From the NCBI RefSeq assembly GCF_036507355.1, contig NZ_AP027877.1: a stretch of 64,000 nt of DNA; one strand, 5' to 3'. A model generated the notes under the pieces. The model ran no database searches. It saw only the letters and a program-made list of their open reading frames with translations, and was not told the DNA's origin. How positions within the stretch are numbered: position 1 is the stretch's first letter; each line of letters starts with the position of its first letter. Both the position numbers and the translations under genes were made by a program. Positions 18,140 through 39,638 of this stretch are shown piece after piece. Source of the DNA: Escherichia coli (GTDB lineage: Bacteria > Pseudomonadota > Gammaproteobacteria > Enterobacterales > Enterobacteriaceae).

Positions 18140-18250
18140 TAAAAAGAATTCAGAATCAGGCCGGAGTGCTAAATACTCCGTAAACACGGTCGTACATCCA
18201 GCCGGTAGCCTGGTTCCTTGCATTGAGTGATGTACGGAGTTTATAGAGCA

Positions 18251-20846: not shown

Positions 20847-22697
20847 ATGGCCTTATTACAAATTAGTGAACCTGGTTTGAGTGCTGCGCCGCATCAGCGA
20901 CGTCTGGCGGCCGGTATTGACCTGGGCACAACCAACTCGCTGGTGGCGACAGTGCGCAGCGGTCAGGCCGAAACGTTAGCCGACCATGAAGGCCGTCACC
21001 TGCTGCCATCTGTTGTTCACTATCAACAGCAAGGGCATTCGGTGGGTTATGACGCGCGTACTAATGCAGCGCTCGATACCGCCAACACAATTAGTTCTGT
21101 TAAACGCCTGATGGGACGCTCGCTGGCTGATATCCAGCAACGCTATCCGCATCTGCCTTATCAATTCCAGGCCAGCGAAAACGGCCTGCCGATGATTGAA
21201 ACGGCGGCGGGGCTGCTGAACCCGGTGCGCGTTTCTGCGGACATCCTCAAAGCACTGGCGGCGCGGGCAACTGAAGCCCTGGCAGGCGAGCTGGATGGTG
21301 TCGTTATCACCGTTCCGGCGTACTTTGACGATGCCCAGCGTCAGGGCACCAAAGACGCGGCGCGTCTGGCGGGCCTTCACGTCCTGCGCTTACTTAACGA
21401 ACCGACCGCTGCGGCTATCGCCTACGGGCTGGATTCCGGTCAGGAAGGCGTGATCGCCGTTTATGACCTCGGTGGCGGGACGTTTGATATTTCCATTCTG
21501 CGCTTAAGTCGCGGCGTGTTTGAAGTGCTGGCAACCGGCGGTGATTCCGCGCTCGGCGGCGATGATTTCGACCATCTGCTGGCGGATTACATTCGCGAGC
21601 AGGCGGGCATTCCTGATCGTAGCGATAACCGCGTTCAGCGTGAACTGCTGGATGCCGCCATTGCAGCCAAAATCGCGCTGAGCGATGCGGACTCCGTGAC
21701 CGTTAACGTTGCGGGCTGGCAGGGCGAAATCAGCCGTGAACAATTCAATGAACTGATCGCGCCACTGGTAAAACGAACCTTACTGGCTTGTCGTCGCGCG
21801 CTGAAAGACGCGGGTGTAGAAGCTGATGAAGTGCTGGAAGTGGTGATGGTGGGCGGTTCTACTCGCGTGCCGCTGGTGCGTGAACGGGTAGGCGAATTTT
21901 TCGGTCGTCCACCGCTGACTTCCATCGACCCGGATAAAGTCGTCGCTATTGGCGCGGCGATTCAGGCGGATATTCTGGTGGGTAACAAGCCAGACAGCGA
22001 AATGCTGTTGCTTGATGTGATCCCACTGTCGCTGGGCCTCGAAACGATGGGCGGCCTGGTGGAGAAAGTGATTCCGCGTAATACCACTATTCCGGTGGCC
22101 CGCGCTCAGGATTTCACCACCTTTAAAGATGGTCAGACGGCGATGTCTATCCATGTAATGCAGGGTGAGCGCGAACTGGTGCAGGACTGCCGCTCACTGG
22201 CGCGTTTTGCGCTGCGTGGTATTCCGGCGCTACCGGCTGGCGGTGCGCATATTCGCGTGACGTTCCAGGTCGATGCCGACGGTCTTTTGAGCGTGACGGC
22301 GATGGAGAAATCCACCGGCGTTGAGGCGTCTATTCAGGTCAAACCGTCTTACGGTCTGACCGATAGCGAAATCGCTTCGATGATCAAAGACTCAATGAGC
22401 TATGCCGAGCAGGACGTAAAAGCCCGAATGCTGGCAGAACAAAAAGTAGAAGCGGCGCGTGTGCTGGAAAGTCTGCACGGCGCGCTGGCTGCTGATGCCG
22501 CGCTGTTAAGCGCCGCAGAACGTCAGGTCATTGACGATGCTGCCGCTCACCTGAGTGAAGTGGCGCAGGGCGATGACGTTGACGCCATCGAACAAGCGAT
22601 TAAAAACGTAGACAAACAAACCCAGGATTTCGCCGCTCGCCGCATGGACCAGTCGGTTCGTCGTGCGCTGAAAGGCCATTCCGTGGACGAGGTTTAA
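20847..22697 (+). CDS. hscA: Hsp70-type chaperone HscA
   Basis: [10 protein letters not shown] start (616 aa), Hsp70 ATPase motifs ([16 protein letters not shown]). Confidence 0.96.
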
Positions 22698-22698
22698 T

Positions 22699-23034
22699 AT
22701 GCCAAAGATTGTTATTTTGCCTCATCAGGATCTCTGTCCTGATGGCGCTGTTCTGGAAGCTAATAGCGGTGAAACCATTCTCGACGCAGCTCTGCGTAAC
22801 GGTATCGAGATTGAACACGCCTGTGAAAAATCCTGTGCTTGCACCACCTGCCACTGCATCGTTCGTGAAGGTTTTGACTCGCTTCCCGAAAGCTCAGAGC
22901 AGGAAGACGACATGCTGGACAAAGCCTGGGGACTGGAGCCGGAAAGCCGTTTAAGCTGCCAGGCGCGCGTCACCGACGAAGATTTAGTGGTCGAAATCCC
23001 GCGTTACACTATCAACCATGCGCGTGAGCATTAA
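22699..23034 (+). CDS. fdx: [2Fe-2S] ferredoxin Fdx
   Basis: 111-aa ORF with CxxxxxCxxC...C cluster ligands. Confidence 0.95.
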
Positions 23035-23045
23035 CAGAGGTTAGT

Positions 23046-23246
23046 ATGGGACTTAAGTGGACCGATAGCCGCGAAATTGGCGAAGCACTGTACGATGCGT
23101 ATCCCGATCTTGATCCGAAAACGGTTCGATTCACCGATATGCATCAGTGGATTTGCGATCTGGAAGATTTCGACGACGACCCGCAGGCATCCAACGAGAA
23201 AATCCTCGAAGCGATTTTGTTAGTCTGGCTGGACGAAGCCGAATAA
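23046..23246 (+). CDS. iscX: Fe-S assembly protein IscX
   Basis: 66-aa acidic ORF downstream of fdx. Confidence 0.92.
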
Positions 23247-23490
23247 TTTCCGCGTCATGCTTCACGCCGCAGATGCGTTGGCTGCGCTCGTTCACCCCAG
23301 TCACATAGTTATCTATGCTCCTGGGGCTTCACTCACTTGCCACGTGATTCGGCCTTTTGGCCTCACCCCTCCGGGGCCAGCGCAAGCGCTGTTCAAAACG
23401 CAATGCGTTTTGTCCTGCAACGCGAATCATTTAGCGGAAAAATCCTGGGGCTGCCAACTGGCGGCCCTTTTACAAAGAAGGATAACTAAA

Positions 23491-24774
23491 ATGACAGAAG
23501 CGATGAAGATTACCCTCTCTACCCAACCTGCCGACGCGCGCTGGGGAGAAAAAGCAACTTACAGCATTAATAATGACGGCATTACCCTGCATTTGAACGG
23601 GGTAGACGATCTGGGGCTGATCCAGCGTGCGGCGCGCAAGATTGACGGTCTGGGCATCAAGCATGTTCAGTTAAGCGGTGAAGGCTGGGATGCGGATCGC
23701 TGCTGGGCATTCTGGCAAGGTTACAAAGCCCCGAAAGGCACGCGTAAAGTGGAGTGGCCGGATCTGGACGATGCCCAGCGACAGGAACTGGATAACCGCC
23801 TGTTGATCATCGACTGGGTGCGTGACACCATCAACGCACCGGCGGAAGAGCTGGGGCCATCGCAACTGGCACAGCGTGCTGTTGATCTGATCAGCAACGT
23901 CGCAGGCGATCGTGTGACTTATCGGATCACCAAAGGCGAAGATCTGCGTGAGCAAGGTTATATGGGGCTGCACACCGTCGGACGCGGTTCAGAACGTTCT
24001 TCGGTATTGCTGGCGCTGGATTACAACCCAACTGGCGATAAAGAAGCGCCAGTGTACGCGTGCCTGGTAGGTAAAGGTATCACTTTTGACTCCGGCGGCT
24101 ACAGCATCAAACAGACTGCGTTTATGGACTCGATGAAGTCGGACATGGGCGGCGCGGCAACGGTTACCGGGGCGCTGGCATTTGCCATTACGCGCGGACT
24201 GAACAAGCGCGTGAAGCTGTTCCTCTGCTGTGCGGATAACCTGATTAGCGGCAATGCGTTCAAGCTGGGCGATATCATCACCTATCGCAACGGTAAAAAA
24301 GTTGAAGTGATGAACACTGATGCCGAAGGGCGTCTGGTGCTGGCCGATGGTCTGATTGATGCCAGTGCGCAGAAACCGGAACTGATCATTGATGCGGCGA
24401 CCCTCACCGGGGCGGCGAAAACTGCGCTGGGTAATGATTATCACGCGTTGTTCAGTTTTGACGATGCGCTTGCCGGTCGTTTGCTGGCGAGTGCCTCACA
24501 AGAGAACGAACCATTCTGGCGTCTGCCGCTGGCGGAATTCCACCGCAGCCAGCTGCCGTCTAACTTTGCCGAACTGAACAATACCGGAAGCGCGGCGTAT
24601 CCGGCAGGCGCGAGCACGGCGGCGGGCTTCCTGTCGCACTTTGTTGAGAACTATCAGCAAGGCTGGCTGCATATCGACTGCTCGGCGACTTACCGTAAAG
24701 CGCCGGTTGAACAGTGGTCTGCGGGTGCTACGGGACTTGGTGTGCGCACGATTGCTAATCTGTTAACGGCGTAA
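23491..24774 (+). CDS. pepB: Aminopeptidase B (M17 leucyl aminopeptidase family)
   Basis: Start [10 protein letters not shown] with AAGGA SD (427 aa); M17 signature NTDAEGRL; ORF track start 23257 is an upstream in-frame extension. Confidence 0.93.
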
Positions 24775-24780
24775 ACTAAT

Positions 24781-24888
<108 letters not shown>

Positions 24889-24916: not shown

Positions 24917-25693
24917 ATGTCCGAAACAAAAAATGAACTTGAAGACCTGCTGGAAAAAGCAGCAACCGAACCGGCGCACCGCCCGGCTTTTTTCCGTACT
25001 CTACTGGAATCCACCGTCTGGGTGCCTGGTACGGCGGCGCAGGGCGAGGCTGTGGTTGAAGAGAGCGCGCTTGATTTACAGCACTGGGAAAAAGAAGACG
25101 GCACCAGCGTCATTCCTTTTTTTACCTCGTTAGAAGCACTTCAACAGGCGGTTGACGGCGAACAGGCATTTGTTGTAATGCCCGTTCGCACATTGTTTGA
25201 GATGACCCTTGGCGAAACGCTCTTCCTTAATGCCAAACTGCCAACCGGTAAAGAATTTATGCCGCGTGAAATCAGTTTGTTGATTGGTGAAGAGGGAAAT
25301 CCGCTGAGCAGTCAGGAAGTACTGGAAGGCGGCGAATCGCTGATATTATCGGAAGTCGCAGAGCCGCCAGCACAAATGATTGATTCACTCACCACCTTAT
25401 TTAAAACCATTAAACCAGTGAAGCGTGCTTTTATCTGTTCAATTAAAGAGAACGAAGAGGCACAGCCTAATTTACTTATTGGTATTGAAGCCGATGGTGA
25501 TATCGAAGAAATTATTCAGGCGGCGGGAAGTGTAGCAACCGATACATTACCTGGCGATGAACCAATCGATATTTGCCAGGTGAAAAAAGGGGAAAAAGGA
25601 ATTAGCCATTTTATTACCGAACATATTGCGCCATTCTATGAACGTCGTTGGGGTGGTTTTTTGCGTGACTTTAAACAGAACCGGATAATCTAA
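24917..25693 (+). CDS. sseB: SseB (enhanced serine sensitivity protein B)
   Basis: ORF MSETKNELEDLL (258 aa); the ORF track start at 24908 is a GTG; synteny next to pepB. Confidence 0.88.
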   Translation: MSETKNELEDLLEKAATEPAHRPAFFRTLLESTVWVPGTAAQGEAVVEESALDLQHWEKEDGTSVIPFFTSLEALQQAVDGEQAFVVMPVRTLFEMTLGETLFLNAKLPTGKEFMPREISLLIGEEGNPLSSQEVLEGGESLILSEVAEPPAQMIDSLTTLFKTIKPVKRAFICSIKENEEAQPNLLIGIEADGDIEEIIQAAGSVATDTLPGDEPIDICQVKKGEKGISHFITEHIAPFYERRWGGFLRDFKQNRII

Positions 25694-25694
25694 A

Positions 25695-26000
25695 ATATGC
25701 CGCCCCAAAGGGCGGCATTCGGGCTTACCTGCTGTTCTGAAGGTTGTTAACCACCAGTAAATTGTTGCCGGAGAGACTCAGGTTATTATTTACCTCGGTT
25801 AACAGCGCACCAGAAACAATAAGTACGATACAAAAGCACCGTATCTTCATTGTGCGGTCCATGCGAAGACCGCATCACGACAGCACCACTGGCGATATTG
25901 CCGCGATAGCAAGCGCTGTGAAACACCTGCATTTACGGCCACGGAACATCCTTTCCTAAAGCCAGCGCCCGTTTGCGAGACGGCGGAAAGGGCCGGTGTC
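25695..26000 (-). ncRNA. ryfA: RyfA-like RNA, copy 1 (mRNA for a small hydrophobic protein); 5' end not determined
   Basis: Minus-strand hairpin gccgccc-tttg-gggcggc plus AUAUUUUA tail at about 25695-25722; location between sseB and sseA as for K-12 ryfA. Confidence 0.5.
25725..25850 (-). CDS. timP: TimP-like small hydrophobic protein, 41 aa (MKIRCFCIVLIVSGALLTEVNNNLSLSGNNLLVVNNLQNSR), copy 1
   Basis: Intact ATG...TAA ORF on the minus strand, below the 60-aa ORF-track cutoff; hydrophobic N-terminus; terminator immediately downstream; weak SD. Confidence 0.5.
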   Translation of the reverse strand: MKIRCFCIVLIVSGALLTEVNNNLSLSGNNLLVVNNLQNSR

Positions 26001-26034
26001 GATAATACGCTAAATAAACAATAATTACTCTCTT

Positions 26035-26063
26035 TTGCTTGACAAAAAGAGAGTTGCTGGCGA
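26035..26063 (+). promoter_or_regulatory. Candidate sigma70 promoter of the divergent sRNA, copy 1
   Basis: TTGACA at 26035-26040, 17-bp spacer, GAATAT at 26058-26063. Confidence 0.4.
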
Positions 26064-26067
26064 ATAT

Positions 26068-26177
26068 TGCTCTGCTGTGAAGCACCTGCGTTGCTCATGC
26101 AACACAAGTCAATCTGCTGGAGAGGCCGCGAACCAAACCGGCAACAAATAACCGCCTGATTTTGGCGGTTTTTTGTT
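26068..26177 (+). ncRNA. TimR/RyfB-like antisense sRNA candidate, copy 1
   Basis: Promoter-like element upstream, terminator ccgcc-tgattt-ggcgg-TTTTTT at 26150-26177; 5' segment complementary to the copy-1 RyfA 5' UTR. Confidence 0.45.
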
Positions 26178-26378
26178 GCTTAAAGAAAGTGAATTTACAT
26201 GTTTAAGTAATATCTTTTACCGGTTAGTATTTTTAATATTGAGCGGGATTTGTTTATATTTGTCTGAATTCGGACTAATAAGCCAGGTCATTTTAATATC
26301 GAACATATTGCGCCATTCTATGAACGTCGCTGGGATGGTTTTTTGCGTGACTTTAAACAGAACCGGATAATCTAAAAT

Positions 26379-26680
26379 ATGCCGCCCCAAAGGGCGGCAT
26401 TCGGGCTTACCTGCTGTTCTGAAGGTTGTTAACCACCAGTAAATTGTCGCCGGAGAGACTCCGGTTATTATTTACCTCGGTTAACAGCGCACCAGAAACA
26501 ATAAGTACGATACAGAAGCACCGTATCTTCATTGTGCGGTCCATGCGAAGACCGCATCAAGACAGCACCACTGGCGATATTGCCGCGATAGCAAGCACTG
26601 TGGGGTGCCTGTATTTACGGTCATGGAACATCCTTTCCTAAAGCCATCGCCCGTTTGCGAGACGGCGAAAAGGGCCATTA
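26379..26680 (-). ncRNA. ryfA: RyfA-like RNA, copy 2; 5' end not determined
   Basis: Second copy of the same terminator hairpin and ORF-bearing block. Confidence 0.45.
26407..26532 (-). CDS. timP: TimP-like small hydrophobic protein, 41 aa, copy 2 (two substitutions relative to copy 1: L24R, N29D)
   Basis: Intact ORF MKIRCFCIVLIVSGALLTEVNNNRSLSGDNLLVVNNLQNSR on the minus strand. Confidence 0.5.
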   Translation of the reverse strand: MKIRCFCIVLIVSGALLTEVNNNRSLSGDNLLVVNNLQNSR

Positions 26681-38409: not shown

Positions 38410-39528
38410 ATGCATAACCAGGCTCCAATTCAACGTAGAAAATCAACACGTATTTACGTTGGGAATGTGCCGATTGGCGATGGTGCTCCCATCGCCGTAC
38501 AGTCCATGACCAATACGCGTACGACAGATGTCGAAGCAACGGTCAATCAAATCAAGGCGCTGGAACGCGTTGGCGCTGATATCGTCCGTGTCTCCGTACC
38601 GACGATGGACGCGGCAGAAGCGTTCAAACTCATCAAACAGCAGGTTAACGTGCCGCTGGTGGCTGACATCCACTTCGACTATCGCATTGCGCTGAAAGTA
38701 GCGGAATACGGCGTCGATTGTCTGCGTATTAACCCTGGCAATATCGGTAATGAAGAGCGTATTCGCATGGTGGTTGACTGTGCGCGCGATAAAAACATTC
38801 CGATCCGTATTGGCGTTAACGCCGGATCGCTGGAAAAAGATCTGCAAGAAAAGTATGGCGAACCGACGCCGCAGGCGTTGCTGGAATCCGCCATGCGCCA
38901 TGTTGATCATCTCGATCGCCTGAACTTCGATCAGTTCAAAGTCAGCGTGAAAGCGTCTGACGTCTTCCTCGCTGTTGAGTCTTATCGTTTGCTGGCAAAA
39001 CAAATCGATCAGCCGTTGCATCTGGGGATCACCGAAGCCGGTGGTGCGCGCAGCGGGGCAGTAAAATCCGCCATTGGTTTAGGTCTGCTGCTGTCTGAAG
39101 GCATCGGCGACACGCTGCGCGTATCACTGGCGGCCGATCCGGTCGAAGAGATCAAAGTCGGTTTCGATATTTTGAAATCGCTTCGTATCCGTTCGCGAGG
39201 TATCAACTTCATCGCCTGTCCGACCTGTTCGCGTCAGGAGTTTGATGTTATCGGTACGGTTAACGCGCTGGAGCAACGCCTGGAAGATATCATCACTCCG
39301 ATGGACGTTTCGATTATCGGCTGCGTGGTGAATGGCCCAGGTGAGGCGCTGGTTTCTACACTCGGCGTCACCGGCGGCAACAAGAAAAGCGGCCTCTATG
39401 AAGATGGCGTGCGCAAAGACCGTCTGGACAACAACGATATGATCGACCAGCTGGAAGCACGCATTCGTGCGAAAGCCAGTCAGCTGGACGAAGCGCGTCG
39501 AATTGACGTTCAGCAGGTCGAAAAATAA
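38410..39528 (+). CDS. ispG: HMBPP synthase IspG
   Basis: 372-aa ORF with Fe-S Cys ligands ([16 protein letters not shown]). Confidence 0.96.
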
Positions 39529-39638
39529 TAACGTGATGGGAAGCGCCTCGCTTCCCGTGTATGATTGAACCCGCATAGCTCCCGAAACATTGAGGGAAGC
39601 GTTGAGGGTTCATTTTTATATTCAGAAAGAGAATAAAC

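Follow-up and report, generated by a model that had tools for sequence, protein, structure and literature searches.

A long-form ERIC element with an internal hairpin module in the iscX-pepB spacer of Escherichia coli

The spacer between iscX and pepB

The spacer that separates iscX from pepB in Escherichia coli raises the question of what kind of sequence it holds and whether that sequence acts on the genes around it. In the window (the whole stretch of 64,000 nucleotides analysed here), the iscX stop codon TAA (23244-23246) ends at position 23246 and pepB starts at ATG 23491, which gives a gap of 244 bp (23247-23490), compared to 1 bp between hscA and fdx and 11 bp between fdx and iscX in the open reading frame list. 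The pepB start opens a clean 427-aa translation and is also the RefSeq start in relatives. The original prediction, made from the letters of the window, had described this gap as unusually long for the operon, which was borne out, and as containing GC-rich inverted repeats, both of which are present: one at 23295-23326 (pair I2; arms CCCCAGTCACATAG and CTATGCTCCTGGGG) and a CCCC-TCC-GGGG hairpin within 23361-23378. A perfect 9-bp hairpin was also found at 23394-23412. The sense RNA of 23247-23495 folded at -98.2 kcal/mol compared to -74.1 ± 4.7 kcal/mol in 200 shuffles (z = -5.1), with none of the 200 reaching the native energy. The spacer was 100% identical to that of O145:H28, strain 042 and further genomes.

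The spacer consists of a long-form ERIC element, a non-ERIC 8-bp stem-loop and the pepB ribosome-binding site and start codon. Its features are given below in window coordinates.

23046..23246, plus strand: iscX coding sequence, for context (open reading frame list; annotated iscX in matching E. coli records)
23247..23440, unstranded: long-form ERIC/IRU element of 194 bp (127-bp canonical part and 67-nt internal module), with the orientation that folds less strongly on the mRNA-sense strand
23247..23272, unstranded: left terminal inverted repeat of the ERIC, TTTCCGCGTCATGCTTCACGCCGCAG (pair I1, 26 nt, 73% complementary)
23257..23490, plus strand: spurious in-frame N-terminal extension of the pepB open reading frame (505 aa in all), missing where the ERIC is missing
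23289..23332, unstranded: ERIC central core around the CCCCAG...CTGGGG palindrome, with head-to-head ERIC2 and ERIC1R primer sites
23346..23412, unstranded: 67-nt four-hairpin module, missing in the K-12 allele (alignment with K-12 and O157, and fold)
23415..23440, unstranded: right terminal inverted repeat of the ERIC, CTGCAACGCGAATCATTTAGCGGAAA (pair I1), A/U-rich and aligning with the canonical right end TCCTGCAACTCGAATTATTTAGGGTATA known from dozens of loci
23448..23471, plus strand: stem-loop GGGCUGCC-AACU-GGCGGCCC followed by UUUU (8-bp stem-loop at 23448-23467), a little after the ERIC and not part of it
23478..23493, plus strand: pepB ribosome-binding site AAGGA (23478-23482) and ATG (23491-23493); AAGGATAA...ATG is kept in all orthologous spacers

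Taken as a whole, the explanation that we prefer is a long-form ERIC of old inheritance, followed by the stem-loop and the ribosome-binding site, with a proposed effect on the mRNA, and we put its probability at roughly 0.8.

Identity and anatomy of the ERIC element

ERICs (enterobacterial repetitive intergenic consensus elements, also called IRU or RU-1) were reportedly described by Sharples & Lloyd in 1990 and by Hulton et al. in 1991. The element in the window shares with this family a 127-bp imperfect palindrome, the ERIC1R/ERIC2 core, terminal inverted repeats, an intergenic and putatively transcribed location (between iscX and pepB) and presence or absence that varies between strains and species. 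Without its 67-nt module the 194-bp element measures exactly 127 bp, as in K-12, O157:H7 and E. albertii. The two primer sites (primer sequences from PMC3696847) lie at 23289-23310 on the minus strand (ERIC2) and at 23311-23332 on the plus strand (ERIC1R) with 19 of 22 positions matching in each. Neither has another match in the 64-kb window, with 0 expected by chance; the window holds a single ERIC copy. The outermost 7 nt pair perfectly (TTTCCGC with GCGGAAA), and in the minimum-energy folds both the termini and the arms were paired to form one long irregular hairpin closed by the termini, along whose arms weak Rfam matches to V_AS5 and CssrA were located. The 127-bp query was found at 60,713 places in 5,425 of the 5,426 complete E. 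coli genomes, with a median of 13 and a maximum of 19 per genome; these ~13-19 detectable copies agree with the published ERIC copy number of ~20-30.

The element differs from the family in its termini (TTTCC...GGAAA as opposed to TATAC...GTATA), in the extra 67-nt module and in the lack of a readable TA duplication. Neither TA termini nor a TA target-site duplication was visible at the site, where the termini TTTCCGC...GCGGAAA are flanked by TAA on the left and AATCC on the right, and the duplication was not reconstructable as the empty alleles differ too much beside the site. The missing TA hallmark is consistent with an old, immobilised copy. In core, length, palindrome, copy number, polymorphism and long-form subclass the element agrees with ERICs, and it departs from them in the canonical TA termini and duplication. 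Identity as an ERIC/IRU, taken jointly with the history at the site that is proposed below, is very likely. A decayed small element had been one of the original suggestions: it is a small element (an ERIC/IRU, hence a MITE), but decay did not hold up, as this is a full-length long-form copy that differs less between species than the genes on either side do. It is a sequence of a known kind in a well-studied genome, and no new class of system.

The ERIC folded at -75.8 kcal/mol on the sense strand compared to -97.4 kcal/mol on the minus strand, with the same sign in all 14 long ERICs tested. The stronger minus-strand fold is therefore a family-wide property, which alone does not tell which strand acts at iscX-pepB.

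The stem-loop a little downstream of the ERIC reads GGGCUGCC-N4-GG(C/U)(G/A)GCCC and then a short U-run across orthologues. Its stem was paired in 88 of 88 cells (11 sequences from 8 genera), with or without an ERIC beside it, and the loop varied freely. Substitutions in the stem were limited to U.G to U-A and G-C to G.U, so that pairing is kept on the sense strand only. A simple terminator scan, which needs at least 5 T in 8 bases, did not call the stem-loop at 23448-23471 because it is followed by only 4 U. It is probably a leaky terminator or a 3'-end-stabilising hairpin of the isc transcript.

The internal hairpin module

Sharp in 1997, Cromie, Collins & Leach in 1997 and Wilson & Sharp in 2006 are said to have reported ERICs with foldable ~70-bp internal insertions at fixed sites, homologous between copies. 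The window element shows no essential difference from these, having a foldable ~70-bp segment at a fixed right-arm site that is homologous among copies; at iscX-pepB the long form appears to be ancestral, with long and short forms alternating among orthologues. The module sits between CTTGCC(A/G)C and TCCTGCAAC and folds into four hairpins, H1 (23351-23362), H2 (23366-23376), H3 (23378-23391) and H4 (23394-23412).

A search with the hairpin 4 core, scanned against one genome per species, returned at least 120 stretches, of which ~14 of those listed look like chance matches. Among the matches listed, the module lies directly 5' of TCCTGCAACTCGAATTATTTAGGGTATA in Pectobacterium, Dickeya, Leminorella, Intestinirhabdus, Salmonella arizonae/diarizonae, Enterobacter, Citrobacter, Erwinia and E. 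whittamii. At least 14 full-length long ERICs of ~194 bp were found in other genera, with the same junctions, a homologous segment and an architecture like that of the window element. These full-length matches came from Pseudocitrobacter, Enterobacter asburiae, Leminorella, Intestinirhabdus, Pectobacterium, Erwinia and Salmonella diarizonae, with the module always directly 5' of TCCTGCAAC. Some of the listed loci had the ERIC ends and the module without the ERIC core, and others combined the module with YPAL-like hairpins. The YPAL / RU-2 elements of Yersinia and Pectobacterium (De Gregorio et al., 2006; Delihas, 2007) resemble the window element in being multi-hairpin miniature elements (~168 bp), and many listed loci join YPAL-like hairpins with the module and the ERIC right end; the window element differs in having an ERIC central core, not a YPAL-like hairpin series. 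In Pasteurellaceae and at a few Intestinirhabdus loci the module occurred without ERIC ends, and there the Rfam family RF02902 (AaHKsRNA22) scored 47-80 bits.

RF02902 was also the sole above-threshold Rfam match in the iscX-pepB region, at 23348-23420 on the minus strand with 45.3 bits compared to a gathering score of 39.8. The match shares with the family the order of small hairpins and a near-identical ACAAAACGC-loop-GCGUUUUGAAC hairpin, and differs in being nested in an ERIC, in lying antisense to the operon and in lacking 24 model positions. Pasteurellaceae copies scored 63-80 bits with this model and other long ERICs 42-46 bits. The match is best read as recognition of the repeat module rather than of an sRNA gene.

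Structure was kept while sequence varied among the copies. Hairpin 1 had 25 distinct self-complementary arm pairs in 36 copies, and hairpin 3 showed compensatory changes in four of its eight pairs (RNAalifold). When 45 modules were aligned with MAFFT, RNAalifold picked up hairpin 3 alone, as loops of varying length put the other stems out of register; each sequence was then folded locally instead. The minus strand folded better in 39 of the 45 module copies and in every whole ERIC tested. The closest other module copies in E. coli genomes had 82-90% identity over ~60% of the module. A bolder reading would take the module as an ancient structure-constrained unit, common to long ERICs, YPAL-like elements, RF02902 and tRNA-linked repeats of Cellvibrionales and Alteromonadales and gained or lost precisely at one ERIC site, with the iscX-pepB copy, better kept than adjacent synonymous sites from before the Escherichia-Leclercia split onwards, co-opted as an intercistronic RNA element that sets pepB versus isc expression; taken as a package we consider this unlikely.

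Several further loci were observed during the search. E. coli has two more elements with ERIC termini and a diverged module and without the ERIC core, each ~125 bp and strain-variable, one in the rfaJ-waaO spacer (L005/L007, 340-470) and one upstream of uhpA (L006/L008, 330-470). Intestinirhabdus alba (L068-L129) has dozens of module-bearing ERIC-like or YPAL-like elements among the matches listed, as well as stand-alone RF02902-like copies (L084, L086, L128), and looks like the richest source among those matches for study of the module. Non-enteric gammaproteobacteria have the same module, with three hairpins, 75-130 nt downstream of a tRNA gene for Val or Ser (L041, 10160-10391; L049, 8934-9179; L050, 1256-1553; L020, 152-398). 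There it lies inside a partial duplicate of the tRNA 3' end, with the T-loop apparently interrupted by it (GGGTTCGA / module / ATCCC...). Finally, Ysr224 (Yersinia sRNA 224, Rfam) scored above threshold at a Pectobacterium locus rich in module-type repeats (L017, 4574-4680), and may be one more 'sRNA' family that is founded on a repeat.

Alleles and history of the site

Three alleles were found across the 5,426 complete E. coli genomes. The long allele (at least 80% of the 244-bp query) was present in 424 genomes, or in 436 when counted by the module alone (~8%), and a 127-bp ERIC in ~2,864, K-12 and O157:H7 among them. An ERIC of any length was present at iscX-pepB in 3,288 genomes; the remainder (~2,137; ~39%) have no ERIC and a 58-bp spacer, as in ATCC 25922 and strain 74-2. 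The spacer of the K-12-like and O157:H7 alleles is 177 bp and differs from the window by the missing 67-nt block and two edge bases. With junctions marked by slashes, the short allele reads GCCGC/CT/TCCTGC and the long allele GCC(G/A)C/GTGATT...TTTTG/TCCTGC. A single clean insertion or deletion was considered and rejected as these junctions do not fit it; they require 69 nt for CT, 67 nt with two substitutions, or deletions of 10 and 57 nt.

The state of the site also varied across the 10 other taxa compared.

Long form: E. whittamii (98% identical); Leclercia (247-bp spacer)
Short form: E. albertii; Klebsiella sp. I138
Deletion remnant: Siccibacter (module hairpin 3 and right end kept); K. 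pneumoniae (TTTCGCG-TTAA-GCGAAAA)
No ERIC: Salmonella; Citrobacter braakii; Enterobacter hormaechei; Pluralibacter; two further Escherichia lineages

Spacers in ERIC-free relatives and E. coli measured 53-61 bp, with 53 bp in Salmonella. A Salmonella diarizonae locus (L036) was rejected as an orthologue, as the ERIC alone matches and the flanks do not; the true Salmonella spacer is the 53-bp one without an ERIC. Rather than one identical spacer in all relatives with no sign of covariation, we found a highly polymorphic spacer whose stems carry compensatory changes.

All ERIC-bearing orthologues have locus-specific, non-consensus termini (TTTCC(G/A)CG...), which points to a single old insertion and not to several at the same place, and the long form must be old since it is orthologous in E. 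whittamii and Leclercia. By these comparisons the ERIC at iscX-pepB is very likely old and vertically inherited, and was lost from, or never present in, other lineages. The module is present in Leclercia, E. whittamii and Siccibacter, so at this site the long form is probably the ancestral state and the K-12 allele a derived one. With K-12, E. albertii and Klebsiella sp. all carrying short forms, the module must have been gained or lost more than once, in either direction, and templated conversion from other ERIC copies would provide a route for such gain and loss.

Constraint on the orthologous element

We compared mismatches in the ERIC with those at third-codon positions of the adjoining iscX and pepB, and the ERIC had diverged more slowly in all three species pairs.

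K-12 and E. albertii: ERIC 0/127, third-codon positions 29/237, P = 2.5e-6
Window and E. whittamii: ERIC 3/194, third-codon positions 24/267, P = 5e-4
Window and Leclercia: ERIC 20/192, third-codon positions 121/267, P = 1e-16

Two stems changed between E. coli and Leclercia by compensation. In the terminal stem a G-C pair became A-U (TTTCCGC/GCGGAAA to TTTCCAC/GTGGAAA), and in the central stem a U-A pair became G-C (CATAG/CTATG to CAGAG/CTCTG). Several of the other differences between the two ERICs are in loops. The slow divergence and the compensatory stem changes suggest selection on structure, although the slow divergence could instead stem from gene conversion or inter-species recombination.

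Transcription and a possible effect on the mRNA

According to PMC4055776, which cites Giel et al. (2006), iscR mutants of E. coli and Yersinia show joint derepression of the isc genes, pepB and sseB. A consensus scan of 22600-24000 returned no promoter-like site on either strand and no canonical terminator. Given this co-derepression and the lack of a promoter-like site in the scanned region, the ERIC most likely lies within a read-through isc-pepB-sseB mRNA, and the region is better described as intercistronic than as a dedicated pepB leader. An Rfam scan of 22600-24000 to E = 10 returned 0 riboswitch or cis-regulatory families; the only cis-regulatory match in the window was iscRS (18140-18249).

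According to reviews of De Gregorio et al. (2005), Yersinia ERICs beside gene 3' ends lower the level of the upstream transcript, and the cause proposed there, again as the reviews present it, is that ribosomes stop the hairpin from folding, so that an RNase E site becomes accessible in the terminal repeat on the 3' side. The window ERIC resembles the B-oriented, stop-codon-proximal ERICs of Yersinia enterocolitica described in that work in adjoining the upstream stop codon, in being probably co-transcribed and in having an A/U-rich right repeat on the 3' side. By analogy, the ERIC would be transcribed inside the read-through mRNA and fold as a long irregular hairpin. A ribosome terminating at iscX would open the base of this hairpin, because the first base of the ERIC directly follows the iscX stop codon. 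The opened hairpin would expose the A/U-rich right-hand repeat (the GAAUCAUUUAG side, 3' in the mRNA) to RNase E, making the right repeat at 23415-23440 a candidate RNase E target, and this exposure would lower the upstream isc segment of the mRNA relative to pepB. We propose such an effect on isc and pepB mRNA tentatively and regard it as rather doubtful. The weaker fold of the strand present in the mRNA counts against such an effect. Any effect of the ERIC must also be dispensable, because ~39% of E. coli genomes do without the whole element, as do Salmonella, Citrobacter, Enterobacter hormaechei and Pluralibacter.

Alternative explanations

A considerable possibility, short of even odds, is that the ERIC is a functionless relic, a selfish MITE that inserted behind iscX and has simply stayed there, with its slow divergence due to gene conversion, interspecies recombination or peculiarities in how palindromes mutate, and not to selection, and with no measurable change in isc or pepB expression. 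The polymorphism in presence, absence and length within E. coli and across genera would be expected of such a relic, the remnants in Siccibacter and K. pneumoniae look like ongoing erosion, and the E. albertii ERIC is 100% identical to that of K-12 while the flanks differ by ~5%, which could equally reflect recent transfer. However, divergence below that of the flanking third-codon positions recurs in three independent species pairs, two stems are preserved by compensatory double changes, and the orthologues share both their locus-specific odd termini and a AGTTATCT centre, which speaks against their having been homogenised by ERICs from elsewhere. That the spacer is a dedicated cis-regulatory leader of pepB (riboswitch, attenuator or thermosensor) is scarcely credible by comparison. 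The original prediction had considered a processed or regulated 5' UTR of pepB, and the strongly structured RNA (z = -5.1) upstream of pepB fits this, but the structured part is a dispersed repeat, neither a cis-regulatory Rfam match nor a promoter-like site was found, and thousands of E. coli genomes as well as several genera (Salmonella, Citrobacter and Enterobacter among them) express pepB from a 53-61-bp spacer that lacks the structured part. The natural alleles have largely refuted the leader.

Two further alternatives concern the module. It could be a small mobile element in its own right that entered a 127-bp ERIC of the K-12 type recently, which would make the window allele the derived one; this is improbable. 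Sharp (1997) and Cromie et al. (1997) speak in their titles of insertions within ERIC sequences, the long allele does not differ from the short one away from the junction, the long allele is confined to only ~8% of E. coli genomes, and the module does occur without ERIC ends in Pasteurellaceae and Intestinirhabdus. A recent insertion is hard to reconcile with the orthologous long forms of E. whittamii and Leclercia, whose divergence is as under descent, or with hairpin 3 of the module being retained at the same site in Siccibacter. The unclean junction and the lack of a close donor among E. coli genomes (best others 82-90% over ~60%) also count against it, and the short forms of K-12, E. albertii and Klebsiella sp. 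require repeated gain or loss regardless of direction. Far less probable still is an independent sRNA on the minus strand at 23348-23420, a homologue of Aggregatibacter AaHKsRNA22 antisense to the isc-pepB transcript. The RF02902 score exceeds the curated threshold on that strand, the same model matches both Pasteurellaceae copies and other long ERICs, and the minus strand is the better-folding one in most modules and all whole ERICs tested. Against this, the match lacks 24 model positions and behaves as a dispersed repeat module, not as a single-copy gene, and neither strand has a promoter-like or terminator-like site in 22600-24000. The family itself comes from one RNA-seq survey with no function shown, in which 35 candidates had near-identical copies elsewhere in the genome.

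Annotation and neighbouring features

The spacer should be labelled as an ERIC repeat, and the RF02902 match should be read as the repeat module and not as an sRNA gene. The RefSeq annotation of MG1655 has no repeat feature in the iscX-pepB spacer. The upstream extension of pepB that had been suspected of being spurious is a 505-aa open reading frame running in frame from ATG 23257, and it translates the repeat element. Gene callers do translate ERICs, as in this frame (23257-23490), in a 478-aa 'PepB' from a public metagenome (P0001) and in a 72-aa open reading frame in the Leclercia spacer (L135, 380-598), and the 505-aa 'extended PepB' should therefore be rejected.

Three modest points of interest stand out: the series of three alleles, a degree of conservation among orthologous copies that was not expected, and the broad occurrence of the hairpin module. 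The 58-, 177- and 244-bp spacers form a natural series in near-identical backgrounds and make a convenient test of the effect of an ERIC and its module on the stability of a polycistronic mRNA. That orthologous ERICs diverge slowly and are also lost repeatedly poses a minor puzzle as to how selection acts on MITEs.

Downstream of pepB, the pepB-sseB spacer (24782-24881) carries a classical REP/BIME pair (GCCGGATGCGGCGTAAACGCCTTATCCGGCCTAC ... GTAGGCCTGATAAGTATGGCGCATCAGGC), which appears to be the 'RU-3' repeat placed 3' of pepB by Delihas (2007). Like the ERIC, REP/BIME is a short palindromic intergenic repeat inside an operon; it differs in its ~35-bp units and in having no ERIC core or termini. 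Two full-length ryfA RNA genes (25692-25996 and 26374-26678) lie on the minus strand at 25692-26678 around an IS128 sRNA match (26132-26342), where K-12 MG1655 has a single ryfA/timP. The other Rfam elements in the window were as expected: the iscRS stability element (18140-18249), sroE (39528-39619) and ES036/CssrF (48098-48140).
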